A stretch of 64,000 bases of DNA from a virus (Duplodnaviria; Heunggongvirae; Uroviricota; Caudoviricetes), in IMG/VR virus record IMGVR_UViG_3300021400_002728, positions 261,154 to 325,153 of that record; one strand, given 5' to 3'. The notes under the pieces were generated by a model. It saw only the letters and a program-made list of their open reading frames with translations, searched no databases and was not told the DNA's origin. Made by a program: the position numbers and the translations under genes. Positions 24,718 to 61,725 of the stretch are shown here, one piece after another (within the stretch, counting starts at the first letter, position 1; each line of letters opens with the position of its first letter).

Positions 24718-25212
24718 TTATTCCTCCATAATTTTTTCCATTACATAATGAGATCTAAACTCATCATTCATGTGCATGTATATATTTACAGGAATTTCAA
24801 GATGTTCACCAGTATCTCGGTCAACTAATGCAAGAATATGTCCACCATTTACAGTGTACGAAGTTCCATCAATAGAAATTTCAAACATTTCATCTTCACC
24901 AGTATGTAGTTCTTTTACCTTACGTGGTTGTCCATCCTTACCCATAACTACGTCACCTAATTTAACGTCTTTTGCAAGTTTAATTCGTGAACCGACTGGA
25001 TAATTATCGTCATTTGAAAATTCTTCAATAGTAAAACTTCTCTTTATTCGTTTTCCGTCAACAAGGTCAACAAGATGATGTTTCCTGTACATATTTTTAA
25101 TTAAATAGTCTTTTACTGACACAACTTTTTTACAACCAAATCTAAAAAGAGTTAGTTTGTAGTTTTCGTCAGCTATAATAAAACTACCATCATCTAAAGT
25201 GATTTTATACAT
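24718..25212 (-). CDS. free-standing intein middle fragment IntM-1 (Hint core lacking blocks A, F and G)
   Basis: GSRIKLAKDVKLGDVVMGKDGQPRKVKELHTGEDEMFEI...YTVNGGHILAL matches the VMA-type intein N2 to block B region; no N-terminal Cys block, no terminal HN, no extein. Confidence 0.82.
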   Translation of the reverse strand: MYKITLDDGSFIIADENYKLTLFRFGCKKVVSVKDYLIKNMYRKHHLVDLVDGKRIKRSFTIEEFSNDDNYPVGSRIKLAKDVKLGDVVMGKDGQPRKVKELHTGEDEMFEISIDGTSYTVNGGHILALVDRDTGEHLEIPVNIYMHMNDEFRSHYVMEKIMEE

Positions 25213-35783: not shown

Positions 35784-36575
35784 TTAATGAACTAATGTAT
35801 CATACATCATAACTGGTGTATTTTCTTCCATACATCCGGTACCACCGCAAATAAGTATACTGGTACTTGGTACAGTTTCATATAACTCGTCATTCTTATT
35901 TTGATCGTTAAGATACCAACCAATTGGACTGACTTTTTGCGTATTTGGATTAATCGTAAGTCCCATAGGAACGATATTCCAGAACTTATCATCATTAGGT
36001 GTAAATGAAGCTCTATTAGGAATAGGCTGTCTCTTTTTACACTCTACCATGATAACACCTTGGTCAATGAATGTTTTGATATAGTAGTAAGAATAATGAA
36101 TTGATTTATCTGACATTTCAGTAACAAATTCTTTCTTATCTACTTCCTTACCAGATCTATCATAATTGATATAGATATATCGACTATCATAGAAGATAAT
36201 TGAGGTACCCAAGCGTTTTTCAGCAATTTCATATACCCAATCATCAAAAGGTGCTTTTCTTAAAAATATCATTTTTACTAATATACCAAATGCTAAAATT
36301 ACTAATGAGATTACGACTAAACCAATACATATGTAAAGTCGATAAATCTTATTTGCAGTAATAGCTAAGAATATTGGATTCTGTGTCTTAACTGCTAAAA
36401 TTGCTGCACCAAAAGCAAGGGCAGCCATGACTAATCCGAAGATAGATAAAAATCTGCAAACCTTAAACATCTTATAGGCAATTTGATGTTTAGGTTGCAC
36501 ACCTTTTAGGACTTGGACGTCATCATGGGAATCAGCCATACTATCATGGACCTGTTTAGCTTCCTGTTGTGCCAT
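35784..36575 (-). CDS. FtsK/SpoIIIE-family ATPase 1, N-terminal half (2 TM) ending in 16-aa IntN-1
   Basis: Two TM helices, VPMGL..IGW, SILICGGTG (first half of Walker A), then CMEENTPVMMYDTLVH-stop. Confidence 0.85.
   Translation of the reverse strand: MAQQEAKQVHDSMADSHDDVQVLKGVQPKHQIAYKMFKVCRFLSIFGLVMAALAFGAAILAVKTQNPIFLAITANKIYRLYICIGLVVISLVILAFGILVKMIFLRKAPFDDWVYEIAEKRLGTSIIFYDSRYIYINYDRSGKEVDKKEFVTEMSDKSIHYSYYYIKTFIDQGVIMVECKKRQPIPNRASFTPNDDKFWNIVPMGLTINPNTQKVSPIGWYLNDQNKNDELYETVPSTSILICGGTGCMEENTPVMMYDTLVH
35787..35834 (-). other. split intein N-fragment IntN-1 (16 aa)
   Basis: CMEENTPVMMYD matches intein block A (C-h-x-x-x-T-x-V-x-M-x-D). Confidence 0.85.
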
Positions 36576-41552: not shown

Positions 41553-42143
41553 TTAAGTTTCATATCTACCAGTATCAGTAGAAATACAGAAACATGGTAA
41601 TTCTCCAACAAGTTCAATTTTATTTATAATCATTCCATTACAATAAAGTTCTGCGTTATACTTACCAATAAGATAATCCATACCTTTACAAGTAAGCCAA
41701 TATGTATTCTCATCTACTTTCTGAGGTTCACTCTTAACGACAACCTGCTTAAGATAGATTCTTTTAACCTTATCAAAATGAAAATCATAAATTTCAGTTT
41801 CAGCGTTTGTTATAATAGGATCTACCTGTACATTGATAGGCTCATTATAACAGAATTTTTCTATAATTGATTTTTCTTCTAGTGTGAGTTCTTCATCACT
41901 AGAAATATCATAACTTTCCTCAAGTGGTACAAATGTACAGAACTGATCAAGTTCTGCTTTTGCTTCTTTAGGAAGTTTACTTACATCTATAAGTAATACA
42001 TGATTATAAGCGCATGTAAATTCTTCATTTCTATTATATGTGATCTTGCAGCAAAGCTCAGGATGTGTTCTATGAATCTGAGTAACTCTACTACCATCTT
42101 TCATAATATCTCCGACTTTAACGTCTTTCCACTGTTTTACCAT
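41553..42143 (-). CDS. free-standing intein middle fragment IntM-2 (lacks blocks A and G)
   Basis: VKQWKDVKVGD..., FTCAYNHVL (block B), IINKIELVGELPCFCISTDTGRYET-stop (block F); GGAGG RBS. Confidence 0.75.
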   Translation of the reverse strand: MVKQWKDVKVGDIMKDGSRVTQIHRTHPELCCKITYNRNEEFTCAYNHVLLIDVSKLPKEAKAELDQFCTFVPLEESYDISSDEELTLEEKSIIEKFCYNEPINVQVDPIITNAETEIYDFHFDKVKRIYLKQVVVKSEPQKVDENTYWLTCKGMDYLIGKYNAELYCNGMIINKIELVGELPCFCISTDTGRYET

Positions 42144-43100
42144 AAATTCCCTCCGATATGTCTAGTTGACTAAACTTATCATACTTATCAATATATCTAG
42201 TAAGTTTTTCATACTGTTTGAAAATATCTGTTTCTAAATAATCAAGCATAATCTGTCTAGCTTTTTCATCATCTCGTTCATAAAGCAGGATAAATTTACC
42301 ACCTAGCACAGTACCTATATCAGATTTTGCATATACTTTACCATGACCATTTTCAGCACGTGTATATACAATAATATAGTTTCCTTTTCCATATTTGTTT
42401 TCAGCAAACTTAAATGGACTAGGATCTTCTTCAGTATACTGCTCTTTTACTACTTCTATTAAACCTTTATCGTATTCAAAATAGTAGTGGTAAATGTCTT
42501 TTTTCATAAGTTCCTACCTCAAAATCCTCTACGTTCAAATTCCTCTTCGGCTTCAAATCTTGAAGCTAACATAGCAAATTTACGTACTTTATCTAGATCT
42601 TTACATCTGATAGTTATTCTTATTATATTTGTATTAAGACGAGTATCTATACCTTCTTCAATAACTTCGATATAATTAAAGTTTGCATCATCACCTAAAG
42701 CATCTAATGCCTGTACATAAGCTTTACGTGTGTGATTTCCAATAGAATATCCGTCATAATTTACAAGTTTATAATTAGTAGATGCAGCCTTACCTTCATA
42801 TAGCATGAAATATGTTCTTAACGAAAATTGACTTATATTATTATCTGGATCAAATCTATCAGGATCATCAATCCATTCACGATAAAATTCATCAATAGTA
42901 TAATCATCTTTAATCTCTTTAAGCGCATATTCATATGCTAAGTAAAAAGCTCTTAATTCTAATGGCTGACTATCTGCTTTAACTAATTCAGTTTTAACTT
43001 TATACTGTTTAAGTACATCTTCTGTTCCAGTGATAGTAGCGCCTGTATCAAGTGTTCCAGTATATAATGTTTTTGCTTTAATTTCTTCTAAAGTTAACAT
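42118..43100 (-). CDS. two hypothetical proteins (42118-42507, 42519-43100)
   Basis: ORFs downstream of the promoter at 43143-43171. Confidence 0.55.
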
Positions 43101-43142
43101 GATAACTCCTTTCTATCTTAATAAAGGCACTATCTTATTATA

Positions 43143-43171
43143 ATTATAACAAGATAATGCCATTATGTAAA
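43143..43171 (-). promoter_or_regulatory. sigma70-type promoter
   Basis: TTTACA-17-TATAAT. Confidence 0.8.
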
Positions 43172-43184
43172 TAGTTTTTCCATA

Positions 43185-46100
43185 TCAGTCGTTTCTTACA
43201 AATTCAAAAATATAATCATTAGATTCCCAATCAAATGATGCCATAATCCATTCATTATCCCAGTCAGAGTCCTCATAACCCTCAAGACCTTCATCTTCAT
43301 AGTTAGCAAACTCCTGCTGTTCGAATCCTTCTCCAAGACCATCTGAATTCTGACCAGATACCCACTCACTAATAGGTTTGAGTTCTGTAGCAGATAATGC
43401 TCTTGATGTAGTAAGTTCAATATTACCAGAATCTTCATCCTTAAGATGCCACTCAATTTTCTCTACAGCATTTCTTACATCTTCTGGAATACGATCATCA
43501 TCTTTAAGATACTGAGTCATATCATCTTCTGTAAGATATTCTTGTGCAGCTGATAAATCATTTACACATGCTGTAAGTTTGAAATATGTTCTATAAATAT
43601 ACATAATTCTCACTCTCCTTCTTCATAGGTCCATAATATACGGAAGACTTCTTCTACAGCTTCACACTGAGAATTAGTATCAGACTCAAATGTAGTCTTA
43701 TTACCATCTTTATCATATACAATTAACTCATAACTTGGATAATCACAAATAAGTCCTTCAGTGATTTCTACATTATTTGTATTAAAGTCATCCCATAAAG
43801 TATAGATAGTTGATACATCTTCATCTTTAAGTCTAATTCTGTCTTTAGTGCCATCTGCATATTCTTTATTGACTTTACCTTCAGATGTAATGTAATAAGT
43901 AACTATTTTAGAATCATACTCTTCCTGCGACATTGAACCACCAGGATAGTCAGTTGCTTCGAATAAAAGTCTTTCCTGTAATATAGTAGTATTTCCATCT
44001 GCTGTAGGTTCTACAGATCCAGTAGGTGTATTAGTAGCCATATTAGTACAACTAGTTACAGATAACATCAATACTGCTATTAAACTAATGATTATTTTTC
44101 TCATCCTTGCTCCTTACAGTACTTTTCTTTGTGTTCCCGTACTACAGAATCTTTTGCAAATCCAAGAAGATCTTTATTATCACGTTTGATTTTGTATGAT
44201 TTTGGATTTGAATTTAGTTCAGTTACAAATATAAAATTACCTTCTGATGGTGTACACCCAAATCCACCAGTACAAAGAACAAGTTGATATTTTTCATTTT
44301 GATATTCCGGTTTAAAGAAATCTTCTTTTAGAATTACAAATCGTCCCTGTAAATCTGAATTATACACATTTTCATCTGTACAATCTTTCAGTGTATACAT
44401 AAGCATTCCCTCCTATTTTAGTCGGTCGGGATTGTACTTATCATTAAGCCAACTTTCAAGAATTATGTTAAAATCTTCTCTATTAACTATATCAAACCAA
44501 TCTCTTGGACATAAAGCTTGATAACATTTTGTCTTATTGAGAATAGTTGTCCACATCCATCCTTGTCCGGCGTCAAGATAACAATCGCCAACCTCATATA
44601 GTTCCTTATTAGGACTATTTTTTGTCATAAGTGCTGCAAATTCTTTCAAGCTTTGATACTCTTCAGAATCTTCTTTAAAGGTACATTCCATACCTTGATG
44701 ATATTTTCCCATAATTACTCCTCAACTATATCAAAATACATATCAATCGGTTCATCTTCAAAATAAAGATCACACTCAATATTCTTATACTCTACTGTAC
44801 AATCTAAATTAGGATTGCTAGGTTTCTTTAATGTACAACGAGCATTTCTTGGAATATATACATCAATTCTATCTCCAGTTTCAACTAAGTCTAATCCATA
44901 AGACTCGTCAATATTATCTAATTCGAGATTATCATTAGTAAGATTATCCCAACACTCAGAATATGAATTTAACGTTTTAGTATAAATACATAATGGTTGA
45001 ATTACAAATACTGTTAATTTACCTTTGCTATTAAGTGCATCTAATAACATAATTATCACTCCTTTCAAGTTTTTATAAGAACCACCCGCACATCCACACT
45101 TTTTCAAACCAATTATAAATTGCTACTACATCTCCAGATCCATCTCGTTTATATACCATCATGGCAAATGTTTCTGCATCATCATAGTTACTAAAACGAT
45201 CGTCTATATTTGACCATAGCAATTCAGTGGTATGCTCACTTAAAAATTGTTTTAACGCTCTTTTAGAAGATCTATCAACTTCTTTAATCTCTTCAAAAAG
45301 ATCGGCTTTGATATAGCATACCGAATATCTATATGAAGCCATTATACCGTTAAGAATTGGTCAGTTTCGCTATCTAATACAAAACTGCCCCATGATCCTT
45401 CATAGATTGTGCTTTTGTCTTTAGTGTCGATGGAAGTAACAGCTCCAGTTAAAAACTTTCCTTGTTCTGCGATTATATTCTTAGGTGAATCTGATCCTTT
45501 TGCATAAAGCACTACAACAGTATCACCTATCTTTATTGGTTGTTTTCCATATCCATTTTGTAACATTCTACCTTTGACTACAAATGTATTGCATAAATCA
45601 CAACATCTACTTTCATAATCATCTTTAGCGCATAATGGAAATGGATTATTTCCCCATTGTCCTACTGGTTTTCCACATATACAACAATTCATAATTATTT
45701 ACCTCTTTAATTTACCATATATATCTTTAGAAATCTAAATAGATAGTAAAGATATTATCATAAGTCTGATGTTCAACACAATATTCAAAACTCATATCTT
45801 CACCCATATCTGGATTAGGTCTGAAATCGTTTTTAAGTTTAAGATCAGAAAGTTTATCTTTAATAATATCAATTGCCTGCTTTAAGTTCTTGATATTATC
45901 TTCACAAAGTTTTTCACAAATAGTATAATGGAATCCAGTACCACAATTTCCGCACATACTAAGTGAATGGAACTCTACCATATTTTCACCTCGATTAGTT
46001 CTTATAAGTGAAAGTACTATTCGGGTCTTTTCTACTCCACCTTCAATTTCTTTCATAAGAAATTCCTGAAGTTCATCTTCAAATTTCTCTTCTCCAACAA

Positions 46101-47722
46101 TCTTCTGAATCTTTGCAGCTACATCACAAAATGCTTCAGATGTGTCTTTTGCCTTTTTAAGCTCATCTAAATTAAATGCCATTGTCATATCCTCCTCTAA
46201 ATGCTTATAAGAAATATGTCTTCTGCTAAATCGAGATACTCTACTTTATATTCATCTAAATTTGATTGATACTTAGTAAAGTTATTGATAATTATATTAT
46301 TTGAATATATACCAATATCAGTATCATCAAAATCTAATAATGTTTTAATGAATATAAATATTTCATCAAAAGAATATTCTTTAAGATGACGTTCATCAAA
46401 TGAATGATAATCTACGTCATTTATAATTAAGTCTCGCTTAGATCTCCATTCTTCTTTAAGAAGAGCACCCATATCTTTGAATGTAAATAGACATTGAACA
46501 GTATAGTAGTTCATATCAAAATTTACTATATGTGGTTGTGCCCTAAACTGCTTTACATTCATAATATTACTCCTCTAATCCATGATCATATAATGCATTT
46601 TTAAGTTCGTCTTCAAGTTCACTTAAACGATCATTATTGAGATCATCTGTATCACTAGATACTAACTTAACATCATTCTCAAACTGATAGAATATTTCAA
46701 CTGTAGTGTTTGGATTCTGTTCTTGTACTTTCTCATAGATAATTCTTTCAAGCAGAGCAACTGGCACTAATTCCTTTATAGTAATACCGTCTCTAGTTTG
46801 GAAGTTATCTTCGAAAGGTTGATTAGCATCCATATACAATCTTCCATAAACAGTTATATCATACTTAGCTGTTACTCTAGTAGTGTAATTAAATACTACA
46901 TTTGCATTAGATCTATCAATTTCTTCTATATTACCTTCTGACTTAAATACTTTAAGATTATCTTCACGAAGTTCTACTGATATACTATTATTCTCAGTAT
47001 CTTCAATATATTTTGCGATTATATCAGGAATTTTGATACTATGCATAAATGATTCATAATTCATCATTCCTTTTTCACCAGTGATAGTGTCTATTCTAGT
47101 TTGACCGTTGTACTTTTTAATTGTTGCTGGACATTCTAGAATTTCTTCTAATCTAACTTCAAAATCAGCTTTAAGCTGTACTTTTATATCTTGATATAGT
47201 CTCATAATCATTTACCTTTTAATCGTCTGATAATATTTTATTCATTACTAGATTATCTAACTCTTAATCTTTTGGTGCAAGTTCTTTAAGATCAAACTCA
47301 TGAAGTTCATCTGTATTAAGAACTCCATCTAATAAAATAAATGTTCCCCAAGTTCCTTTTTCATTCTGTCCTTCACGTGTTTCTAGAACATGAAGATCTT
47401 TTGGAATAGTACCAGGACCGGTACCATGTAGTGTAAAATACCAATATCGTCTTTCTTCATATGGTCTTGCATCTGAATATCTTTCCATAGTCTACTCCTT
47501 AATAAGTTAGGTTGCTTCTATAATTAACTTAGGTCCATTTTCACCTTCTCTGAAATTATCAAGTCTAATATTTCCTAAAGCTGGTGATAATTCAATTTTA
47601 GCATCATCAGGAACTGTAGCTAAGAAGGATTTAAGTTCTCTAACTGTTTTGTCCTCAAATTGATGAATATAGAATAAGGGCATCTGTGAACTCATATTAT
47701 TTCTCCTTTTATACTGGTTCAA
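43185..47722 (-). CDS. run of about 12 small, mostly acidic hypothetical proteins, including a lipoprotein (43610-44104)
   Basis: Contiguous same-strand ORFs with RBSs; VTSC lipobox in 43610-44104. Confidence 0.55.
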
Positions 47723-48308
47723 ATGTCTTATAATTAGTTACTTTACCATATTTATCAAATTCGAACCAAGCAATTTGATAAATACAATAACAGTCTACTC
47801 CATGAATTTCTCTATGATCAAATGTATGGTGATGACCATAAATAATAGTAGCAGGTCTATTTCTTTTAATATATTCAAGAATACCTTTAAGACCACAATG
47901 AGCTGAATCTTCTAGAATACCACAATAACCATAAGGTCCATCATGTGAAAATAGAATATCTGCATTTGGCATATTATTGAATTGTTTTATAGATTGTTCC
48001 TGTGTATAACCATAAACTTGACTTTCTTTGTACTTATGTGATCCTTGCCATCCAGTAAAAGATGGTAAGCTGCCAATTCTTTTCGCATGTAAAGGAAATG
48101 CGTCTTTATGGATCATCATAGTTGGCATATCATGGTTTCCATTTAATCGATACACAGGAACATTAAATTCTTCTATTGCTTGGTTTATATCTCCAGTAGA
48201 ATGATCTCCTAGCATTACTACAACGTCATACTCTGGAATTTCATCTTTGTATTTTGTATAGACAGTGTTAAAAACACCATGAGTATCTGTGATTACTAAT
48301 ACTCTCAT
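47709..48308 (-). CDS. calcineurin-like metallophosphoesterase
   Basis: DTH, GD, GNHD, SHDGP, GHHH. Confidence 0.88.
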   Translation of the reverse strand: MRVLVITDTHGVFNTVYTKYKDEIPEYDVVVMLGDHSTGDINQAIEEFNVPVYRLNGNHDMPTMMIHKDAFPLHAKRIGSLPSFTGWQGSHKYKESQVYGYTQEQSIKQFNNMPNADILFSHDGPYGYCGILEDSAHCGLKGILEYIKRNRPATIIYGHHHTFDHREIHGVDCYCIYQIAWFEFDKYGKVTNYKTFEPV

Positions 48309-48324
48309 CTATTCTTCCCTTCCA

Positions 48325-50969
48325 TTAAATAAACATCTTCTTCGTGAAATCGTAATACTCATCTTCAGTAGCTTCTTCAATTTCAGCAGTATTACTCATT
48401 CTAATTATACCCTCTTGAGCAAATTTCTTGAACCAATTCTTAGCATCTGATTTATCTTTAGCCATTATCACACAAACAATTGCTTTGGATGTAAAAAGTT
48501 CAGCATTTGCATCAAATTCAGTTGTTTCCACTAACTTATAATACATAAGCTAATTATCCTTTCCAAAATTTTCCACAATATCTAGCATACGCTACTAATT
48601 CAGACTCAGTTGCTGGTTCAAAGTCATCTTCACGATACTGATACGTACCATACTTATTGACAAATTCAAGGATAGCATCAATGTCCTTGCCAATAATTAC
48701 TGGAATATGCTCTACATCAGGTGGAAGACCAATTCTTCCCCACTCAGTACGATCATATCTAACCTTTCTGATAATCCAATCTGGCTGAGTATCAAGTAAG
48801 TAGTTAATGTAATCTACAAAAGCTACCTCTTCTTCTTTCCACTCTACATTATCGAGATTATCTTTGACAGGTGCACCACACATATCACAGAATTTAGGCT
48901 TATAATTAGGACCAGCATTAATAATGTGTCTACAATTATCACAATATACATTAGTACAAATTGTAGGAGAATTTCCATACTTTAAATATACTTTGTACTC
49001 AACCATATCTCTACCTCTCTAATTAAACCATATTTTTTCCTCTCTATCATAAATAGAGGCGTCATCACTACTTCTATGAGAATCTACATATTTCATGGCA
49101 CATTCATTTGCATCATCTTCTGAATCAAATTCACCAAGTTGATCACCATAATCCATAGGATCACGACGTCCAGATTCAAGAGCATCAAATAATTCTATAC
49201 CCATATCATCTGCATAGCTTTCTTGGCAATCACTATCAAAGCCGTATACGACATAACGTTTATCCATGACTCCAACCTCCTTAATTACATTTCCTGCCAA
49301 CCATAACTATCACAATACCACATACGAGAATCGTCAAGAATAACGATGTCTGATGTACTCATTGAATGAGCTTTGTAGTCAGTAGGACGCTGCATATTGA
49401 ATTTATAAAACAACTGTTCCAATATCTCCTCATCTGTATGATTTCCAAAATCTTCTTCGTACTCGTATTTCTTTTCATAGTACTGTTTAAGATCACGCTT
49501 AAGATCTGGAACGACCTTAATTACATATGAATAATTCATAAAGGAGAGATCGTGTCGCTCGTCAATATCTTCGCGTACATGATAAATTTCAACTTTAGTC
49601 ATCATTGTTTTATCCTCCTTTTATTTTTGTATGTATTTTCTAATTTCCATTCTATTTATATTAAATAGCTTTTTCAATTTTGTCGCATTGTGTTGCTGTC
49701 AACGATGTCATCGAACCATTTTGCACCAATTTCAAATCTAGCGGCAAAGATGAGATTAGCATCTTTAATATCGTCTAACTTAACTGATACTATATGAATA
49801 TCATCAGGATATGCGTTATTTCCTGTAAGTTTATATATATCATTCATCAACTTACCTGATATAATATAGAAATCATCTGTCATCATCTTAGCACCATGTT
49901 CTTCAAACCAACCTCTTAGTGCTTCAAGATTGTCGTCATCTGTATTAAAACCAACCATAGTAAAAGCTGATCCATCATAAAGATCTTTAAGGTCTGATTC
50001 TTTACAGTTAATTTTATTGATTCCCATATTTATCACCTCTCTACTATCCTAAAAGTTCCTCAGCACATAACTGAATTGCATAAGCATTCTTTGCTATTTC
50101 AGATTCTGACATTTTAGTAAGCTCCGTTAAAAATTCTTCTACAGTCATATCACAACTATATTCAACTTCACCTCTATGTCTCATACACTTAGGACAGCCA
50201 CCACAGATTTCTGATGGATTTTCTACATCACCATCTGAATTGCATCCACTGCAATACCATTTCATTCTTAGCATGATTAAATCCTCCTATACTAAATCCC
50301 TAAGAGTTACTTCATTTACATGCTCCATCTCTTCTGAATCTAAAAAATTCAATACTTCTCGACTAGTCATTGGTTTAGTGTCAAATAAAACTGCCCAAAT
50401 AACATCATTAGACCAGACATCTGTGATATACGCACCATCAACATCATCAACATGCTCATTAATGTCACCACTAATTTTCCACTGTTTATCTGAATATTTG
50501 CTAAATACTATATCTTGTATTTCTTTTAGAGATACACCTTTTGCAGTAGTAGTATCATGTAGACTATCTTGTTTGAGAGCTTCCCAGTCAAAATCATCTT
50601 CGTCATATTTATCAAATAACGATATAATATTGCTTTTTGGTACTAAATCATACATATCAATAGACAGTATAAATTTTTTATCTGTAACTGCTTCTATTTC
50701 ATTTTCAGGAATTTGTGTTATATCTATATCATAACCATCTCTATACTTTTCAAATCTTTCCATAGTTATACCTCCAAGCAAATTTTAATATAACCACCAC
50801 ATTTGTAAACTTTCTCTGAATTATCCCACTTCCAATCAGCGTCTTTCATGGGTTCATAATCTTCAATTCCTTTATAAATCTGACTTTCATTTTCATCATA
50901 TACGATAACAATATCATCTTCAAATTCTATTTGTTTTCTTGCGTATGTCTTATATCCTCTTTTCATCAA
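48325..50969 (-). CDS. run of small hypothetical proteins
   Basis: Contiguous same-strand ORFs; two have CxxC pairs. Confidence 0.5.
49285..49605 (-). CDS. YodL-like domain protein
   Basis: LEQLFYKFN..RPTDYKAHSMSTSDIVIL...YCDSYGW. Confidence 0.8.
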   Translation of the reverse strand: MMTKVEIYHVREDIDERHDLSFMNYSYVIKVVPDLKRDLKQYYEKKYEYEEDFGNHTDEEILEQLFYKFNMQRPTDYKAHSMSTSDIVILDDSRMWYCDSYGWQEM

Positions 50970-50978
50970 TCTACCTCC

Positions 50979-51632
50979 TTATAGAATACCTACATACAAT
51001 GCAGGTTGTTTCTTAAAATATGACCAGAATTTTGTTCCATAATCATAATGCCACCATTCAGAAGGAAGATTAGTGAATCCAACTGATGTCATTGCTTCAT
51101 ATAGAATTCGTCTATTATTTGTTATTCTGTTGTTTGCAGATTCAAAATGACTTGTCCAAGCTTTATTAGTAAAATCATCGAACTTTGTACCCATATCTAC
51201 TTCCATATTTTTGTATACAAGAGTTAGATCAACTGAACCACCAGTATTGTGAATAGATGGTTTATTTATATCATAAGATGGTTTACTAACAAATATACTT
51301 GTTATATCATCAAGATCTTTATCAGATATGTTAGGATCTGACATTTTTATCTGATTTCTATACTTATCCCATAAATATTGTTGAACAGCTATAGGACGAT
51401 ATGCATCGTAGATCTTAAATCTATAACCTTCAGGAAGCTTAGACTCTGCTTCTTTTAACAGTTCCACTACTGATTTTCTAGCTAAACAATCCTGTAGTGA
51501 ACCTGGTATGTTTTGTAGATAGTATTGAGATTCACATATAAATCCATTTTCTGATAATGAAACTAAAGGCTCATCTAGAGGATCTATCTCAAAGGTATCT
51601 ACTACAGGAAAATCAATAGTAGGAATATTCAT
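50979..51632 (-). CDS. D-Ala-D-Ala dipeptidase (VanX/DdpX, M15)
   Basis: YDAYRP, SIHNTGGSVDLTL, DMGTKFD, EWWHYDYG. Confidence 0.88.
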   Translation of the reverse strand: MNIPTIDFPVVDTFEIDPLDEPLVSLSENGFICESQYYLQNIPGSLQDCLARKSVVELLKEAESKLPEGYRFKIYDAYRPIAVQQYLWDKYRNQIKMSDPNISDKDLDDITSIFVSKPSYDINKPSIHNTGGSVDLTLVYKNMEVDMGTKFDDFTNKAWTSHFESANNRITNNRRILYEAMTSVGFTNLPSEWWHYDYGTKFWSYFKKQPALYVGIL

Positions 51633-51647
51633 TTGTAAGTTACCTCA

Positions 51648-53578
51648 TTAGTCCTCTATATTCAATAATCTAGGATTATAGATGTAGAATCGATTATCAT
51701 CGTCAGTAGGTACAAAATATGCAGTCATCTTAACATATTTTCCTTCTGCAAAAGCAAGTTCTTTAGCAAAGTTAGAATCATATTCTGTCATATCAGCATT
51801 CAATGAAGCATCATAGATATAAACATTTGATCCATCTCTAAATGTAAATGCATCATGATTCTTTCCTTTATAATAATCAGTATTTGCTACAGATTTAAGT
51901 TGTAATGTCTTTGTTTCTCTTTCACATTCAACTTGATTACCGTTAGCTGTTCTAAAAGTCTTCATACTTGATTCTCCTTAATGAGTTCCAAGCATAACAT
52001 CCCATGCTTGATACCAATATTTACTTTCTGAATCTTCATTTGACCAGAATTCTGTTTCCATTACTTCTACTTCAGCTGGAAATTCTACATTATGATATTT
52101 AGCCTGCGCCATTACTGTTTGCTTCTGCATTACCTCATACCAAACTGCACCATCATCAAATACATATGTTTTGTGATAGTATTCTGCAGAAGATCCTTCA
52201 GTTTCACATTGGAACTCGTTATTATGTTTTCTAAAGAAAGTTCGCTTTATATCATTATATTCTTGTTCAGTTACAATATCCATAATCATTCTCCTTATGC
52301 AACTTCAATTTTATCCAAAGTAAACGGTTCTAATTCTGGATGAGTTTTGAGTAGGTCTCTAATGTTCTTATCAAGCTTTTCTTTTAATTCTTCAAGATCT
52401 ACATCTTTTTTACCTGAACACATCCACTGACTTTTATAATTATCCATTACTTCAACTTGTTCATTGAAAGCACTGACAAGAATAATTCCATATTCTCTAA
52501 GAATTTCATTGAACTCAAATTTAGTGTCCCACTTAACAAAACTATTATAGCCACCATTGAGTGTAAGAATAATATTAAACATGTAATACCTCCATAATGT
52601 TATTATATCACGTAATCATGGAAATGTAAACAAATTTTTAGCATGTAATCATGGAAATGTAAACAAATTTTTAGCATGTAATCAATCTTTTTGCACGAGC
52701 ATAGTCCTCATTGTCTAAACCATTCCACAATACTTCAAATGCATCACCTTGCTCATATTTATCATCAAAATTGAGATGCTTCTCATCATTTACGTCTGCA
52801 TAGATTCTATATCGAGTAGATTCACTGAATTTATTTTCAGCTTCTTCTAAGTAGATTGTCATTACTCTACTTAGATCTTCTTTTAATTTAATTATGCATA
52901 CTCTCTCACGATTATATTCATTGAAGTGTACAAAACTATCTGCATCTTCACAATTTCTAAATTCAATAACAAATAGATTTTTATATTCATCTAATCTTTC
53001 TATAAGTATAAGAAAGTCTTCAGCATCAAGTATATAATCTACATCTACATAGTCGTGATCTTTACGTGATTTGTGGTGGTTTGAATTATGCAACGCATTA
53101 TATGTTGTTGATACCATAATTTAACACCTCCATAATGTTATTATTATGCTAATACATCATAGTCGTATTTAGTATAAATTATTTCAGGGTGTTCATCAAT
53201 AATCATAAGTGTTTTAATATCAAGTGCATGCTTTACATCTTTAAAATATCCTTTGAACTCAACTATATAAGCAAGTAATGAAGTTACATAAATTCTTGGC
53301 CATTCTCTTGCAACAAGTTCTTTTATATACTCACCATCTTTATCAATTTCTACTTTTTGAAGATCAATTTTTTCTTTACCAGTCTCAATAAGTATTTTAG
53401 AAAATGCACCATAAGACATAACAATATCAATAAGCATTTCATCATCTATTTGGTTCTTTTCATTTAACTCATATAATGTCATATCATAACCCTCCATATA
53501 AAACAAAATGCTAACCTCAATTAAGAGATTAGCATTTTTCACATTCTTACTTATTATTATAATTAAATAGCACTTCAA
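51648..53578 (-). CDS. five small hypothetical proteins
   Basis: Contiguous ORFs with GGAG(G) RBSs. Confidence 0.5.
52602..52630 (-). promoter_or_regulatory. sigma70-type promoter
   Basis: TTTACA-17-TATAAT. Confidence 0.75.
52612..52683. repeat. 33-bp perfect tandem duplication
   Basis: gtaatcatggaaatgtaaacaaatttttagcat x2 plus gtaatc. Confidence 0.9.
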
Positions 53579-53581
53579 TGT

Positions 53582-56101
53582 TTATAGTTCATCAATCTTT
53601 TTTGTAAAAAAGGATGATGATTCAACTTTGATCTTTATAGTCTTTCCATTTACCTTAGCTGTAAGTGTAGCCTTACCTGCATTATCAGTAACTACAATCT
53701 CCTGATTAGAATTTACATATGCTACAGAAGGATTATTACTCTTAAAGATAATTGGTCTAGACATTTCAATTGAAGCAAACTCCAGTGGAATTATATTATT
53801 AGTAGCAGATACAACCTTATATGTCTTCTTAGATAATGTCACACCTTCATTTACAATTGACGGATCTTCTACAAATACTTTTATGTTGTATTCATTTCCA
53901 TCCTTATTTGTAGTAAGTGTGACGGTACCAGTCTTAAGAGCTTTAATCTTATTACCTTTTACTGATACTATTGTATTATCTGAAGACATCCAATTTTTAA
54001 GACCTTTGATCTTAATTGTCTTAGAGCTATTTACATTGATATGTAAGAGTCTATTTGCTGATATAGTAGGTTCTTTTACCTTAACCACACAATTAAATCT
54101 AGATCCATTTACACATGCAGAAATAGTCGAAGTACCTTTATTTAAGGCAGTTATTGTACCATCTTTATCAACAAGTACTGCATCTGGATTACTGCTATAC
54201 CAGAATGTGTTATACTTGTCAGATAAACCAGTTGATAAGTCTACTACTTTACCTGCATCCAGAGTCATCTTTTTAGTGAGTTTAGACTCTTCAATATGTA
54301 CTGCTATCTTCTGTGTACCATTTGTAATCAATACTTCTTTATCTCCTGTTGCCTTTTTAGCAGTAGCGATATTCTTTTTACTGATCTTAAAGTACTCAGA
54401 ATCTGTACTATTGACTAATGTAAATGCACCTATATCAAATTTCTGACCTTTTACTAAATAAATGTCAGTAGTAAATGATGTTATAGATGGAGCAGGATTA
54501 AAAGGATCTTCAATTGATGCAGGTGGCATCGGTGGTCCAATAATTAACTCACCAGTAATGGTTGCAACCTGTGTACACTGTAAGCCTTCTGTACATTCCC
54601 ATACAATAGCATACTTTCCAGGACCATCTACAAATGTATCAATTCCAGGACCTGAAATAGGATAAGCTTCTCCTGAACCATTATAACTAACATTAGCTTT
54701 AGCTCTATCCCACATCTGTTTAATTGTACCATCTTTTGTAAGATCCCAACTTATATCATTTGCAGATAAAGTTACAGTTCTAGATGGTCTCTTGTATGTT
54801 ATAGTAGCAGTTAAAGTGTGCGTCTCATATAATAACGAAGCCTCATAAGTTTTAGATGATGATGTAGAATCAATTAACTTAATTGTTTTTGTAGTAATAG
54901 TCTTCGTCGATACATCAGACCCGCGCTCTATCCTGATTGTCATTTCACAAGATGTAGGCATCTGATTGAAACTTCCATTCCATTTAGCAGATTGTACTTT
55001 ATATACAGCTTCTGGTGCACGGAACTCTTTATGAGCTGAAAGTATCTGTTCATTAAAGAATAGGAATGCTTCATACTGTACATATGTACCATCTTGATTC
55101 TTAGCAGACATTGATATGTTTGTAGTTTCTTTTACTATCTTTTCTGCATTCGGATTAGCTTCATCCTGTAATGTAAATTCAGCTTTAGAAGGAGCTTCTG
55201 TAAGACTTCCACCTGTCCAAACTACGTCTATTACTTTATAGACTGTTTTAACTATAGGTGGATCAATTGTTTTATCGTATACACGAACATCAGCGTACTC
55301 ATTACCATTAAAGGTTACTTTAGCTGTGAAAGTTGCAGATTCAGTTGTCTCTTCGGTAAGAATAGCATTACCAGTGACGATCGCTTTGTTATTCTGATAT
55401 ATTGTACCGTCATAAGTAGGTAAACTTAATAACGAAATCATATATCCAATTATCTTATCTCGACATTTTCCAGTATCAATATTAGACAAGTTTTTAACAC
55501 TATTCAGTGCATCCATTATATCTTTAGAAGCAAAACCTGATTTGTTCTTAAAATATGTTTCAACTTCTGCTAACCAAGCATGTGCTTCTTCTGAGGAACC
55601 ATCTGTAAACCCTTGACCATTATTGATAAGTTTTACAACAGTAGCTTCATCTATATGATTAGACTTCTCAATGTTGTAATTATAGTTGGCCCTTGCAGAG
55701 TCTTTACTTATACGATTAAGTATATCTATAATCGACTCTTTATAACCATTTGTTGCAATACTTTCTGAGTTTCTTGCAGATTTGATTAGATTATCTAAAT
55801 CTGTATACTCAGCAGGATGAACTATCTCATTGTAGTAGTAGACATCTTCTAACCACTGCCATGCATGGAAACATGAATCATTTACGGACTTACATCTACC
55901 GGCCAATGTTGCAACTGGTTCGGTATATGTAAATACAAAATCGACATTCATGTTCTCTGAAGGCTTTTTAGGCCAAGCAGCTTCTTCTAACTTCCACTTA
56001 TCATAAGCGACTATACCGTCTGCTTGAGCTGTGATTGGAACGCCTGTGAAAATCATAATAGCACTAAGTAAGAATGTAATTATACGATTTTTGAGCTTCA
56101 T
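53582..56101 (-). CDS. secreted/surface protein with C-terminal Ig-like (Big_2) repeats
   Basis: Signal peptide (AQA); WYSSNPDAVLVDKDG, WMSSDNTIVSV, FKSNNPSVAYV repeats. Confidence 0.78.
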   Translation of the reverse strand: MKLKNRIITFLLSAIMIFTGVPITAQADGIVAYDKWKLEEAAWPKKPSENMNVDFVFTYTEPVATLAGRCKSVNDSCFHAWQWLEDVYYYNEIVHPAEYTDLDNLIKSARNSESIATNGYKESIIDILNRISKDSARANYNYNIEKSNHIDEATVVKLINNGQGFTDGSSEEAHAWLAEVETYFKNKSGFASKDIMDALNSVKNLSNIDTGKCRDKIIGYMISLLSLPTYDGTIYQNNKAIVTGNAILTEETTESATFTAKVTFNGNEYADVRVYDKTIDPPIVKTVYKVIDVVWTGGSLTEAPSKAEFTLQDEANPNAEKIVKETTNISMSAKNQDGTYVQYEAFLFFNEQILSAHKEFRAPEAVYKVQSAKWNGSFNQMPTSCEMTIRIERGSDVSTKTITTKTIKLIDSTSSSKTYEASLLYETHTLTATITYKRPSRTVTLSANDISWDLTKDGTIKQMWDRAKANVSYNGSGEAYPISGPGIDTFVDGPGKYAIVWECTEGLQCTQVATITGELIIGPPMPPASIEDPFNPAPSITSFTTDIYLVKGQKFDIGAFTLVNSTDSEYFKISKKNIATAKKATGDKEVLITNGTQKIAVHIEESKLTKKMTLDAGKVVDLSTGLSDKYNTFWYSSNPDAVLVDKDGTITALNKGTSTISACVNGSRFNCVVKVKEPTISANRLLHINVNSSKTIKIKGLKNWMSSDNTIVSVKGNKIKALKTGTVTLTTNKDGNEYNIKVFVEDPSIVNEGVTLSKKTYKVVSATNNIIPLEFASIEMSRPIIFKSNNPSVAYVNSNQEIVVTDNAGKATLTAKVNGKTIKIKVESSSFFTKKIDEL

Positions 56102-56244
56102 TTTGTAATTCTCCTTTTAATATTTAATTGTTCGATATGATAGTATTTCAACTATATTTGTAAACTTCTTCTCACATTAGCCTCACCTCCTATAAAATAA
56201 ATGCTTAGCCTATCTCTAGACTAAGCATTACTTCAATCTTATAC

Positions 56245-56484
56245 CTAACCCATAAAATGCATAATTAACACAGTTATATCAAATGCTAATATAAACATAA
56301 ATGGGATAACTCCACCAAAGAAAAATTCTTTGACATCACTTTGTGCTACAACAAGTGTTCCAGCTTTATACTGAGCAATTTCTTCTTTACTGAAGTCATC
56401 ATCTACTATTGTATAAAGCTTTTCTATTTTCTTCCAAAATGTGTTATTCATCATCTTATCCTCATTCATCTTGTAATTCAACAT
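56245..56484 (-). CDS. small membrane protein
   Basis: C-terminal TM helix; followed by a terminator-like hairpin. Confidence 0.5.
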   Translation of the reverse strand: MLNYKMNEDKMMNNTFWKKIEKLYTIVDDDFSKEEIAQYKAGTLVVAQSDVKEFFFGGVIPFMFILAFDITVLIMHFMG

Positions 56485-56490
56485 TTTGTT

Positions 56491-57525
56491 CTACATAATT
56501 TCTTTTAGATAGCTAATATAGAACTCTATTTCTTGTCTAGACCATAATACTACATAATTAAGATTATTCTTCTTTGCAGTATCTCTCTTTTTTAGATCAC
56601 TTTTTGTCCAAACATTAATAGCATTAGCATATTGTTTGTGTCCATTTTTTGCCTTATCTTTCCATATAGCTAAAGTATCTAGATCTGCTTGATTATTTTT
56701 ATCAAAGAAGTGGTTATTATGTGACCAATATATGTTAAGTTCTACATAAATATCATAATCAATTAAATAAAAATCACAATAAAATGGATATTTTGCTGAA
56801 CTATATTGTGTCTTAAATCTTATACCAAGATTAGTTAATTCTTTCTCAAAATAATCTTCATCACTAGAATAATTACCATTCTGTCTCATAGTAGCATTAG
56901 CCTTTATTCTTGCATCTCTGCTATTACCTGGATTAGTTGTTCCATATTTTTTAATAGATGTAGATATAATCTTGTCTTTTACTGATGGAAGTTGATAAAC
57001 ATTAGTATATTGTTCACCATATTTGCGTTTGATTGTACTAACTATACTCTCTTTATGAGAAGCTGATTTATTATAGCAAGTCATACAACCAATTCCAATT
57101 AAATGTTTTGTAGTTTGTTGACAAACTTCACACCATTTTACTGTATCTTGTTCATGAGCTTTTTTCATATTTACTGAACCTGTTTTTAATCCTACTTTAC
57201 TAGAAGCTATTCTAGCTTTTTCAGACTTATTTCGTTCAATAATATGTTGTCTAGCTTGTTCTATATTTTTAGGATTACTTCTAAAAGTTTGACTCTGTTT
57301 TTCTATTTTGTCAGAATCTTTATTAGAACATTTACTACTACAATATGTATAAAAACCATTTGCAAGATTTATAAATTTAGTATCATTTCCGCAAACTTTA
57401 CATGTATGGTTACTGTCAATATACTGTATATAGTACAAATCAGATGACATTTTATGTGTTTGTCTAATATGTGAACTTAAAGCTTTATAGCCTATAAAGT
57501 CTTTTTCACAAATTTTACACTTCAT
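56491..57525 (-). CDS. free-standing homing endonuclease (Zn-finger + Vsr-like)
   Basis: Cys/His module; YPFYCDFYL..YVELNIYWSH; start overlaps the end of the FtsK-2 N-half. Confidence 0.8.
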   Translation of the reverse strand: MKCKICEKDFIGYKALSSHIRQTHKMSSDLYYIQYIDSNHTCKVCGNDTKFINLANGFYTYCSSKCSNKDSDKIEKQSQTFRSNPKNIEQARQHIIERNKSEKARIASSKVGLKTGSVNMKKAHEQDTVKWCEVCQQTTKHLIGIGCMTCYNKSASHKESIVSTIKRKYGEQYTNVYQLPSVKDKIISTSIKKYGTTNPGNSRDARIKANATMRQNGNYSSDEDYFEKELTNLGIRFKTQYSSAKYPFYCDFYLIDYDIYVELNIYWSHNNHFFDKNNQADLDTLAIWKDKAKNGHKQYANAINVWTKSDLKKRDTAKKNNLNYVVLWSRQEIEFYISYLKEIM

Positions 57526-58807
57526 CTGATTGTACCTCCACAGACTGATCTATATAGATCGCTTTTCCACCACCAGTTTGATAAATATATGCTGCATCAA
57601 ACGGATATGATTCTCCTCCATTCCACTTATTATTCTTAGTATCTGTAAATAAGAATAAATGATTATCAGAGTTAATCATAAAACAACGTACAGATTTATT
57701 CTTAACTACTTTTACATCTGAAATTAAATAATCTGTAAGATTTCCAGGAATAATGTCACCAGATTTAACCTCTGATGCAGTTACTGGACATATTTTATCT
57801 TTTCGTAAAATTGCTAATTTATGCACATCATCTGCATATAAAACTATACTATCATCACTATACTGACTCATTGCCTCTAATGTAAACTTATACAGTTTAT
57901 TAGATTCATGAATTTCGTATACTGCAAGTACTTTGACTGGTTTATTTCCATATCCAAATACTTCATCACCGACTTCAATCGTCTTTATAGTTTTATATCC
58001 TTTAGTAGTAGGTACTATTGTATTTAACCCTAAAGGAGAACCTACACATAACGCCTGAGGTGCAGATGGTGTATCAACAGTTTTAGCAATTTTGCCATCT
58101 TCATATATGTAGTTAGATCTACCTTCATTCTTGATCGAGTTCAAATTCCAGGAAACTTCTCCAAGTCCTGAAAGACCAATAGGAATAAATTCAGGTGGTC
58201 TTAACCAACTACCTTTATATTTTGCAATATGAGGTGGAAGAGGTGTACCAACAAAGGCACATTCTCTTGCAGCAAAGTCAAATTCATTAACCCACTCATA
58301 GTTAGGTAGGTACTTATTCAATGACAAACACAAGTTAACTGCAACTTGTTCCTTAAACGTATTAGGATTGATCTTAATCGTGATCTTGTTAATTTTAGTA
58401 CCTTCATAACCTAGTTGGAAAGGTGGATTGTTAATGTCTTTTAATTCAAATTCGCCAGTTTCTTTATTTTTAACCTTCGAATCGTTAGAAATAACTGGCT
58501 CAAGAACTCCAAATACTGCTAGCAATTCTTCTCTTTGTTTGGCGACTATAACTTTTTTAATAGTAGCAAGAATTACCATCGTAATCAAAATACCAAATGC
58601 ATAAAGGCCTAATAATACCCAAAATATTTTATGACCTTTAAGTGGTAAAACTTGGAATAGTACACCTAAACCAAAAATTCCTACAAGTATAAGGGCATCT
58701 CTTTTTGAATATTGATAACCAACACTATTGCCGTCGCTGATGTTCAGTATTTTATTAGTCGCAAACTGAGCAATAGCAACGACTAAGAAAAATACAAATA
58801 TAAACAT
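57515..58807 (-). CDS. FtsK/SpoIIIE-like protein 2, N-terminal half: TM region, cis mini-intein and terminal IntN-2
   Basis: 3 TM; FIPIGL..VSW; PQALCVGS[intein]TGGGK = Walker A, then AIYIDQSVEVQSDEV-stop. Confidence 0.78.
   Translation of the reverse strand: MFIFVFFLVVAIAQFATNKILNISDGNSVGYQYSKRDALILVGIFGLGVLFQVLPLKGHKIFWVLLGLYAFGILITMVILATIKKVIVAKQREELLAVFGVLEPVISNDSKVKNKETGEFELKDINNPPFQLGYEGTKINKITIKINPNTFKEQVAVNLCLSLNKYLPNYEWVNEFDFAARECAFVGTPLPPHIAKYKGSWLRPPEFIPIGLSGLGEVSWNLNSIKNEGRSNYIYEDGKIAKTVDTPSAPQALCVGSPLGLNTIVPTTKGYKTIKTIEVGDEVFGYGNKPVKVLAVYEIHESNKLYKFTLEAMSQYSDDSIVLYADDVHKLAILRKDKICPVTASEVKSGDIIPGNLTDYLISDVKVVKNKSVRCFMINSDNHLFLFTDTKNNKWNGGESYPFDAAYIYQTGGGKAIYIDQSVEVQSDEV
57518..57562 (-). 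other. putative split intein N-fragment IntN-2 (15 aa, Ala start)
   Basis: AIYIDQSVEV directly after Walker A GK; fits the block A pattern of Ala-start inteins. Confidence 0.6.
57578..58036 (-). other. 153-aa mini-intein, Pro1 / block-F Cys / C-terminal Gln
   Basis: PLGLNTIVPTTKGYKTIKTIEVGDEV..., ADDVH, VRCFMINSDNHLFL, ...YIYQ|T; removal restores GSTGGGK. Confidence 0.8.
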
Positions 58808-58885: not shown

Positions 58886-59395
58886 CTAGGATTCTTCTAC
58901 ATCTGCAGAAAGCAACTTTCCAGTCTTTACATCAATAATTCGCTGGTTAGACGATCCTCTAAAGGCGAGTGTAGTATCTTTAAGGTCTACTCTAAATTCA
59001 CCATCAACTACTACATCAACATACTTCATTACTTCTAAGTCTTTTGAGTCTCTATATAAATTTCCAGTATAAAGCCAGATCGTTTTATCTGGAAATCTTT
59101 CTTTGAACTCTTTGCATAATTCAGTTACCTCAGGTAGATTTTTCTTGTATAATGGATCTCCACCTGAAAGAGTTAATCCATCAATTTGATCAGTTATACA
59201 GTTAAAGAGATATTCTTTAACTTCTTTTGTAAATGATTGACCAGCATTAGGATTCCAAGATTCCTTGTTATGACACTCCTTGCAATGATGATGGCAGCCT
59301 GCAACAAACAGGACAGTTCTCCAACCTTCACCATCTGCTAAGCTGGTTCGGTAAATAGTCATATAATTCATAATTTGCCTCCATTGATAGGCCAC
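58886..59395 (-). CDS. nrdG: anaerobic ribonucleotide reductase activating enzyme
   Basis: DGEGWRTVLFVAGCHHHCKECHN, GLTLSGGDP, FRGSSNQR. Confidence 0.93.
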   Translation of the reverse strand: MAYQWRQIMNYMTIYRTSLADGEGWRTVLFVAGCHHHCKECHNKESWNPNAGQSFTKEVKEYLFNCITDQIDGLTLSGGDPLYKKNLPEVTELCKEFKERFPDKTIWLYTGNLYRDSKDLEVMKYVDVVVDGEFRVDLKDTTLAFRGSSNQRIIDVKTGKLLSADVEES

Positions 59396-60426: not shown

Positions 60427-61725
60427 TTAATCAGCGAGCTCAACAAGATATCTGCAAGCTACCTGAGCTTTATCATACACGATAACTTCATCTCTTCGAA
60501 TGTATGAAGCAGAATTTGCGTGAGCATGTACTGACTGATAACCCATCTTTCTGAACTTCTCAAACTTCTTACTGTCAAGATCACAAACACGGATTTCTCC
60601 ATTAATTCGATCGTAGTTATTAGTGCAATCAAATGAATTGCCCTTAATAACAGCATTTACAAACATCCATCTGGACTGACGATCTGAATCTCTTCTTGTA
60701 TAGTTCCAAGACTTATTAGGACTTGGTGCACTATAGATACCATCACCAAATGCAGATCCGCAATAAGCTGCGTTTGCAGGTCGAATGATAAGACCGTTTG
60801 CCATGATCGAAAGAACGTTTTCAGCACCAGTACCATGCCAGTACAACTTAATGTTTGTATCACAATCTTCAAGACCGTTGGTCTTAAGATACTCAGCAAA
60901 CTCAGTATCTCTTACCGGATTTGCAACTTTATATACATGCTTAACTCTGAAAGATCCGGAATCAGATTCTTTCTTAAGTTTATCTTCGATCATCTTAACT
61001 TCCTTAGCAGTTGCAGTAGTAAAACCAAAACCAAATGCCTGCGAAATAGTATTTACACCATCTGCATTATTAGTAGCTTTACTCTGAAGGATAATGTTAT
61101 CCAACAGTGACTGCTCATTACTGATGTACTTATCGAGATCTTCGGCTTTAGGAAGCTGTGTAGGATTATATACTGCATCTCGTACATTTTTGATCTTTCT
61201 AGGAATGATCGTCCAGATCTTTAACAGTGCTTTATTAAACTGATCTGCGCATTCTTTAATAAAGCTTGCCTTTGTCTGAGAACTATCTGCAACTCCCTTT
61301 TTCTTACACCAGTTTTTATAACTATCTGATGTAGCGAAGTCGTTCTTAACAGTAGTAAGTGTATTGATAAGATCCTGAACTTCGGCGATTGTTGCAGGAT
61401 TCAAAGTTCCGATATCAGTCTGATTAGAGACGTACTGTCTTGAAATGGCGAGTAGATGATTGAGCAGCTTCTCAATTTCTGGATCATTCTCAGGTTTGTA
61501 ACCTTTCGTAACTGTCGTCGTCTTAGAAATGTCTTGATAACCTTTCTTCACCTTTGAGTTGTACTTAGATGACCAATCCTTAATAGGATAAGTAGTCTTA
61601 GTTCCATCAGTACCAACTCTTCCCCATGTTACAGTGAAAGTTCCATCATTGTTGTCATGCATGTGATAGAACTTGTTGTGATTGTCTGCGGTTACCATAA
61701 TGAGCTTTACATCTGCATTCGCCAT
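60427..61725 (-). CDS. WGR-domain poly(ADP-ribose) polymerase-like ADP-ribosyltransferase
   Basis: NKFY..VTWGRVG (WGR); YWHGT, FGDGIYSA, KSWNY, DEVIVYD (H-Y-E triad). Confidence 0.88.
   Translation of the reverse strand: MANADVKLIMVTADNHNKFYHMHDNNDGTFTVTWGRVGTDGTKTTYPIKDWSSKYNSKVKKGYQDISKTTTVTKGYKPENDPEIEKLLNHLLAISRQYVSNQTDIGTLNPATIAEVQDLINTLTTVKNDFATSDSYKNWCKKKGVADSSQTKASFIKECADQFNKALLKIWTIIPRKIKNVRDAVYNPTQLPKAEDLDKYISNEQSLLDNIILQSKATNNADGVNTISQAFGFGFTTATAKEVKMIEDKLKKESDSGSFRVKHVYKVANPVRDTEFAEYLKTNGLEDCDTNIKLYWHGTGAENVLSIMANGLIIRPANAAYCGSAFGDGIYSAPSPNKSWNYTRRDSDRQSRWMFVNAVIKGNSFDCTNNYDRINGEIRVCDLDSKKFEKFRKMGYQSVHAHANSASYIRRDEVIVYDKAQVACRYLVELAD

Follow-up and report, generated by a model that had tools for sequence, protein, structure and literature searches.

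Can an FtsK-like ATPase gene that stops in the middle of its Walker A motif still lead to an intact P-loop, and is a free-standing Hint domain encoded on the same phage genome the part that would repair it? This question is raised by a DNA stretch of 64,000 nucleotides (the window; bases 261154-325153 of the source record), which belongs to a single virus record of 394,266 bp that has direct terminal repeats and is rated complete. The window features ~31% G+C and carries nearly all genes on the minus strand. The nearest DNA holders of the phage sequence are animal gut metagenomes, and the virus appears to be a 394-kb phage of animal gut. The answer proposed here is a naturally three-piece split intein, named system 2, which probably repairs the P-loop of the ATPase by splicing. 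Its pieces, given in window coordinates unless marked as genome coordinates, are the following:

57515-58807, minus strand: N2 (P0001), 430 amino acids (aa), ending ..TGGGK followed by the 15-aa AIYIDQSVEVQSDEV and a stop
58037..58807, minus strand: N-extein of the FtsK-like protein, aa 1-257 of P0001, ending ..ALCVGS
57563..57577, minus strand: TGGGK, the end of the N-extein, comprising Walker A as far as its Lys
57518..57562, minus strand: IntN-2 (N-terminal intein fragment), the 15-aa stub with the block A strand and Ala1
41553..42143, minus strand: IntM-2 or M2 (P0002), an extein-less Hint core of 196 aa with a TAA stop
genome 231317-231282, minus strand: IntC-2 (C-terminal intein fragment), a 12-aa stub ending ..GLISHN, then Ser and VTLRNVIFHCI

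The initial annotation had read N2 as ending at Walker A GGGK with a 15-aa stub that starts with Ala, and this ending is present in the sequence and recurs widely. A total of 129 N2 relatives was found among 5.8 billion proteins, many of them on contigs of 300-530 kb. Among 121 N2-homologous cluster representatives, 106 keep the motif, and in 99 of these the stop follows 9-23 aa after the Walker A Lys, for which reason the tail cannot be taken as a chance read-through. The 99 stubs share the pattern [A/S]-I-Y-[I/V]-x-Q-x-[V/I]-[E/D]-[V/I/L], with an invariant Gln6 (99/99) and either Ala (64/99) or Ser (35/99) as the first residue. Six representatives and the whole-gene loci L037 and L038 run ..GGGK-SVTLRNVIFHC.. 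into the FtsK_SpoIIIE ATPase domain at this very point, and thus the extein is replaced by the stub exactly after the Walker A Lys. The N-extein itself comprises three predicted membrane helices (hydrophobic N-terminal segments) and a conserved N-domain, and in L037 and L038 this region forms the N-terminus of one long FtsK_SpoIIIE protein, the Pfam match being on relatives; Pfam gave no match in N2 or M2. A reading of the 15-aa tail as read-through into an intron or endonuclease cassette was rejected on account of its amino-acid conservation in relatives without a downstream endonuclease gene, e.g., G002.

The second piece, M2, starts just after block A, contains the block B His48, an insertion of ~85 aa and the block F Cys186, and ends with ..GRYET before block G. 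It is equipped with its own GGAGG located 6 nt upstream of the ATG, and the next gene begins 18 nt after its stop. Sequence and structural model agree with the earlier description of M2 as an extein-less Hint domain reaching from behind block A to block F. The AlphaFold2 model, built on a 25-row alignment, reached a predicted local distance difference test score (pLDDT) of 93.5 and a predicted template modelling score (pTM) of 0.80. In VIA-align it matched the class 3 DnaB intein 6bs8 (Z 10.3, root mean square deviation 1.7 A over 96 residues) as well as gp41-1 (Z 10.2), with inteins or Hedgehog Hint domains in all of the top 36 rows, while Foldseek placed inteins at the top of its list (probabilities near 1.00), although none of its matches attained E <= 0.001. 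As the intein ranges aligned to M2 run from about residue 13 to a point short of the last strand, the modelled M2 is a Hint core that lacks the first and the last strand and holds the ~85-aa insertion. No match to PHROGs was obtained in M2. An exhaustive HMMER search of 1.84 billion representatives revealed 43 M2 relatives. His48 is invariant among them, and all those that contain block F have the Cys aligned with Cys186, which occupies block F position 4 (F:4). The ratio of nonsynonymous to synonymous substitution rates (dN/dS) amounts to 0.059 at a dS of 0.75 between G000 and G001 and to ~0.18 against G002, which by this sequence measure indicates strong purifying selection on M2.

The affiliation of N2 and M2 to one intein, as previously proposed, follows from more distant relatives in which both parts are less fragmented. 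In most M2 relatives, the domain makes up residues 2 to ~195 of a protein of 300-576 aa and is followed by ..NGLxHHN, Ser and the same FtsK extein. Such an IntC of ~190-210 aa, fused via ..NGLxHHN then S to the same extein, was found in at least 10 clusters at 50% identity and in the phages G003 and G004, and the N pieces of these two-piece relatives end in the same stub as N2. Since the fused relatives carry the same domain, extein and N stub, M2 and the 12-aa stub together correspond to one IntC cut after block F. Block G is not reached by P0002, P0122, P0123 and P0133, which end two residues past the conserved Gly-x-Tyr; the contig of P0123 measures 1.3 kb, so that partner pieces are out of reach there.

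A short IntC followed by Ser or Thr and the continuation of the ATPase had been expected to the left of the window, and the third piece is indeed located there. A tblastn search with the extein of the unsplit relatives detected it at genome 231.3-230.5 kb on the minus strand, i.e., on the same strand as N2 and M2, with its stub 29,837 nt (29.8 kb) left of window position 1. The motif L-x-x-H-N-S-V is invariant across C stubs and fused forms. Joining N2 without its stub to the C piece without its stub yields GSTGGGKSV, identical to the unsplit relatives, and the sequence restored by stub removal reads VGSTGGGKSVTLRNVIFHC in P0113 and P0118 and within the whole gene in L037, L038 and L070-L075.

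The distribution of these states was followed in nine IMG/VR phage records (G000-G008), which were checked for all pieces and which feature:

G000, G001, G002 and G006: N piece closed by a stub, free-standing M with the terminus G[R/K]YET, and a stub of 11-15 aa on the C piece
G005: M interrupted ahead of block F, with blocks F and G on an IntC of 33 aa
G003 and G004: two-piece form with fused M and C
G007 and G008: unsplit gene, no M

Free M, short stub, fused and unsplit states thereby co-occur perfectly in 9/9 records. The four genomes of the first group (290-467 kb) are rated 100% complete, with terminal repeats in G000, G001 and G006 and a linear G002; their short C stub reads [K/R]GLISHN then S, and the end points of the open reading frames (ORFs) remain the same down to ~60% identity. 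The extein reading frames continue uninterrupted on either side of each insert. The M genes of G001 and G002 occupy a position syntenic with the window, directly upstream of the AAA ATPase gene, and the order M, N, C in G006 shows that N-M-C is not universal. Moreover, 38 metagenome loci were taken in, of which 37 had a readable junction: 10 were unsplit, 8 carried a long IntC, 4 a medium IntC and 15 a short stub. In G005 (L012 2953-3525 and L015), the break point differs from that of the other three-piece forms, and a TnpB-like ORF is situated just upstream of the C piece.

Co-folding of the pieces, suggested earlier as a check, was performed as a three-chain model of the last 35 aa of N2, M2 and a 30-aa open frame with the C stub, with an alignment for each. 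The N2 tail, M2 and the C stub docked with a score of 0.82 (median of three runs) versus 0.41 for the best control, which, as split-intein complexes have already been solved, is to be read as likeness to those complexes and is no proof of binding. In the benchmark, 58 of 80 solved complexes attained the mark, as did 2 of 110 mismatched pairs. The runs agreed in at least 67% of contacts with a partner pLDDT of at least 87. Residues L14-H17 of the C stub were placed along the block B strand of M2 (48-51) and its C-terminus (192-196), and I22 and Y23 of the tail used (residues 22-23) against M2 43-44. The model thus supports a three-piece assembly.

From these observations, we infer the following course of events. 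The first piece would contribute the N-extein ending GSTGGGK and, as its 15-aa stub with Ala1, the first beta-strand; the third, 87 kb downstream of the first, would provide the last strand with its His-Asn as a 12-aa stub, to which Ser+1 and the remainder of the Walker A half are attached. In vivo, both stubs would insert as strands into the free 196-aa core with its block B His and block F Cys and complete the Hint fold. Cys186 would then attack the Lys-Ala junction and hold the N-extein as a thioester linked to M2; it is the most likely attacker, because residue 1 is Ala and Cys186 occupies F:4. Subsequently, the acyl group would pass to Ser+1, cyclisation of the stub Asn would set the stub free, and an O-to-N shift would give ..GSTGGGKSVTLRN... 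As in other inteins, block B His48 and a block G His-Asn with Ser+1 are in place, and the broken host motif is restored upon removal of the intein. The suggested class 3 assignment held in part: Ala1, i.e., no nucleophile at position 1, in this phage and in 64/99 relatives, and the Cys at F:4 agree with it, whereas the Trp of block B position 12 (B:12) and the Thr of block G position 5 (G:5) are absent, so that a class 3 route for system 2 is only likely.

Several points weigh against this reading. All evidence is computational, and the splicing product is a predicted one. The Trp-Cys-Thr (WCT) triplet of class 3 is incomplete, with Leu50 at B:12 and Ser in the stub at G:5 (His in fused relatives), and with Ser1 in 35/99 relatives the chemistry could differ. 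The genes of the three pieces lie 16 and 72 kb apart. Furthermore, the C-extein piece is not one open frame in this genome, being interrupted 12 codons past Ser+1 by 18 inserted nt that contain TAG and TAA, and further on by a 418-nt group I intron:

genome 231245-231228 (L007 5228-5245), minus strand: 18-nt stop-containing insert
genome 231172-230755 (L007 4756-5173), minus strand: ORF-less group I intron of 418 nt between ..KQTE and FYPFKG

The intron matches Rfam RF00028 with 25.3 bits (E 8e-4), under the gathering score, shows U at the 5' splice site and a final G, and is absent from G001 and G002. Finally, the C piece stops at ..YEYLYN; the Walker B part is encoded by its own ORF at ~180 kb, and the break between them bears no intein motif. 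The Walker A half ending there and the Walker B half, which starts MGWFDH.., lie 50 kb apart (L002 1432-1821, L007 4475-4738), and the same plain end point ..YEYLYN occurs in many relatives (P0113, P0118, P0119). Because of the inserts, the intron and the Walker B break, a full-length ATPase would therefore need further recoding, RNA splicing and other steps.

These points feed several rival explanations. The three parts may assemble without any ligation, M2 and the two stubs acting as a non-covalent three-part clamp on the ATPase fragments with the Hint core domesticated as an adaptor. The structural model backs docking only, the WCT triplet is incomplete and, elsewhere, the same gene tolerates the plain break that separates ..YEYLYN-stop from the Walker B piece and is free of intein motifs, all of which would suit such a clamp; nevertheless, it appears unlikely, as a P-loop broken between Lys and Ser could hardly bind nucleotide without a peptide bond and as the invariant residues are catalytic ones (His B:10, Cys F:4, the terminal His-Asn and Ser+1) and not only those of an interface. 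Splicing might also take a route other than class 3, by attack of Ser+1 on the N-junction (class 2, KlbA-like) or by class 1 chemistry in the Ser1 variants, with Cys186 in a structural role. The absent Trp B:12 and Thr G:5 and the Ser at the start of 35 of the 99 stubs would be in line with this, but Cys F:4 is invariant wherever block F is present while residue 1 alternates between Ala and Ser; in addition, the absence of Cys1 and the Cys at C2:4 agree with the class 3 definition of Hoffmann et al. (2020), whose active split class 3 intein is also without Trp. A non-class-3 route is consequently regarded as quite improbable.

The least probable explanation, and a rather remote one, sees decaying debris in this locus, i.e., a non-functional FtsK-like gene shattered by homing endonucleases, introns and insertions, with M2 and the stubs as relics. 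The stops, the intron and the scattered fragments of the C-extein piece would fit such decay, as would the selfish endonuclease genes at every break. Against it stand the dN/dS of 0.06 for M2, the identical ORF ends of the four complete genomes to ~60% identity, the stubs conserved in 99 N pieces and 15 C pieces, and the extein frames that stay open on both sides of every insert. Splicing by a three-piece intein therefore remains the preferred reading of system 2.

The common view of an intein is that of an element which sits within its substrate and acts for a single turnover; to our knowledge, natural split inteins are known only in two pieces, with three-piece forms being a laboratory result. 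A natural three-fragment or tripartite intein was not encountered in the searched literature, which contained the three-piece form only as the synthetic Ssp DnaB intein. The latter, cut at S1 and S0 (Sun, Yang and Liu 2004, J Biol Chem 279:35281), resembles system 2 in being divided into three polypeptides, which in the synthetic case reassemble and splice, and the two cuts of system 2 correspond to the engineered split sites S1, behind the first strand, and S11, ahead of the last one (PMC3620165); in contrast to it, the three-piece Ssp DnaB versions are laboratory constructs of a class 1 intein. Among class 3 inteins, AceL NrdHF was the first for which a natural split was reported; it is active with MCT instead of WCT and was assigned by the lack of Cys at position 1 and the Cys at C2:4 (Hoffmann et al. 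2020, PMC7891396). It shares with system 2 the phage-like metagenomic origin, Ala1, Cys F:4, a fractured gene with a homing endonuclease gene and an incomplete WCT, which is Leu-Cys-Ser in system 2. Nevertheless, its two pieces (98 + 48 aa) are encoded next to each other and are divided at the canonical endonuclease-insertion site, whereas system 2 is cut after the first and before the last strand and has an extein-less core and genes 16 and 72 kb apart.

Natural atypical split inteins feature a short IntN of ~25 aa, e.g., the 25-aa IntN of AceL-TerL (PMC11766414). System 2 likewise has a very short IntN on the N-extein and a large remainder, and its two-piece relatives (G003, G004, P0125-P0132) are of that kind; however, its IntN is shorter (9-23 aa, 15 here), begins with Ala1 and is combined with a block F Cys, and the large fragment is cut again. 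Two polypeptides with an extein on each are present in G003 and G004, while system 2 comprises three genes with the largest part free of extein. In fractured genes, a homing endonuclease gene stands on its own between the split intein halves (Dassa et al. 2009, PMC2677866). Comparably, the phage gene is broken at the intein here, and an endonuclease-like gene with its own ribosome-binding site abuts the break; unlike in those cases, the halves lie 87 kb apart, endonuclease genes follow N2 and precede the C piece, and a third, extein-less gene is needed.

If system 2 is a conserved natural system, evolution can detach a splicing catalyst from its substrates and turn the core into a separate protein. 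It would also reveal the extent to which selfish elements can fragment a gene in giant phages while its function is preserved, and that tags of 9-15 and 11-12 aa can be long enough. Protein engineers would gain a trio of two tags and a ligase that is ready for use, possibly with three mutually selective sets in the one genome. M2 could leave the reaction unchanged, allowing turnover, because it is linked to neither extein. On a more tentative and rather doubtful note, M2 might accordingly not be consumed and might act as a multi-turnover ligase in trans, which would carry the N-extein thioester-bound to Cys186 and ligate any pair of proteins bearing peptide tags of 9-15 and 11-12 aa. The phage would then possess three such sets of enzyme and tags, namely systems 1, 2 and 3, each of which would have to distinguish its own tags from those of the others.

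The sister systems of the same genome comprise the candidate system 1 in the window and a candidate system 3 outside of it:

35784-36575, minus strand: N1 of system 1, in a second FtsK-like gene, ending GGTG followed by a 16-aa Cys1 stub
24718-25212, minus strand: M1 of system 1, a free Hint body
~7448-7308, minus strand: C1 of system 1, a 41-aa IntC ending ..VFHN, then SGKS
genome 179442-179407: candidate N stub of system 3, 12 aa, starting Pro-Leu-Ser
genome 238533-238889: candidate core of system 3, a free core of 118 aa with block B His-Gln-Trp and block F Cys
genome 195582-195553: candidate C stub of system 3, 10 aa ending ..FTHN, then Cys

The order N2, M2, N1, M1, C1 within the window had been described correctly, and the break points of system 1 differ from those of system 2. 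System 3 would be situated later in the same FtsK-like gene as system 2, with an in-frame TAG five codons after its C stub. Among the inteins of P0126, it is the third, ending ..FTHN then C, that the 118-aa core of system 3 matches. A pairing of this core with the ..GLISHN stub 7 kb away was rejected by homology, given that the M2 family is the one fused to ..NGLxHHN then SV. BLAST and hidden Markov model searches with N2 and M2 revealed no close paralogue of M2 in its own genome and only the distant 118-aa core at genome 238533-238889, and tblastn with N2 and M2 against 50,697 phage records gave no match.

N2 itself holds another intein, as relatives of 262-275 aa read ..VGSTGGGK directly:

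57578..58036, minus strand: contiguous mini-intein of 153 aa between VGS and TGGGK, Pro1 to Gln153, with Thr at +1

It lies in the same P-loop two residues ahead of the split intein, is separate from the three-piece system and is carried by 73/106 N2 relatives, being absent from P0033, P0078 and P0082 (alignment A1). Its Cys at block F position 4 is conserved, and its terminal Gln is Asn in relatives.

The stub of N2 is followed by a selfish gene:

56491..57525, minus strand: homing-endonuclease-like gene with an N-terminal zinc finger, overlapping the N2 end by 11 nt

The last IntN-2 codons also hold the GGAGG ribosome-binding site and the ATG start of this next gene, which matches phrog_3339 'homing endonuclease' (E 7.5e-6); a PDB sequence search with its product gave nothing useful. 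A paralogue is present at 7445-8518 (E 4e-44), paralogues adjoin the other break points of the FtsK-like gene, and the C piece begins directly after another endonuclease-like gene.

With regard to the C-extein, stop-containing inserts of 5-38 nt, many of them not multiples of 3, occur at four hot spots within the first ~40 extein codons and only in short-stub lineages, with the same gene in L013, L014, L033 and L046-L078. In nearly all of them, TAG (or a rare codon) and then a hairpin come after the take-off codon, and the last codon equals the take-off codon or is near-cognate to it, e.g., ATT[TAGGCGAAAGCCTAAAGA]ATC, CTT[TAG]CTC and CTT[TAGCAAGTGTAA]CTT. A 10-nt insert is kept in an RNA-library contig of a relative; the RNA run of the source sample (X21) contained nothing on the C-piece locus. 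By analogy, the inserts look like many independent ribosomal bypass sites of the T4 gene-60 type beside homing endonuclease genes, for which a comparison is available (bioRxiv 10.1101/2022.08.31.505936). Close copies of the 418-nt group I intron were found in bovine gut and sludge metagenomes, and in one RNA contig, a circularly permuted junction lies ~16 nt inward from the 5' end of the intron, which is what an intron circle should give.

Rfam at the gathering threshold gave no match in the window, and tRNA genes were not found there. Just upstream of N2, the minus strand encodes a small radical-SAM / 4Fe-4S protein (58886-59395; PF13353, E 8e-45) and, at 60427-61725, a protein with WGR and PARP catalytic domains (PF00644, E 3.8e-24). 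Outside the window, a cluster at genome 104893-125227 comprises 39 tRNA calls (one unassigned) and a transfer-messenger RNA (tmRNA), and includes a tRNA with the anticodon UUA, which would read UAA and UAG; under table 11, most ORFs of the phage are nevertheless intact.

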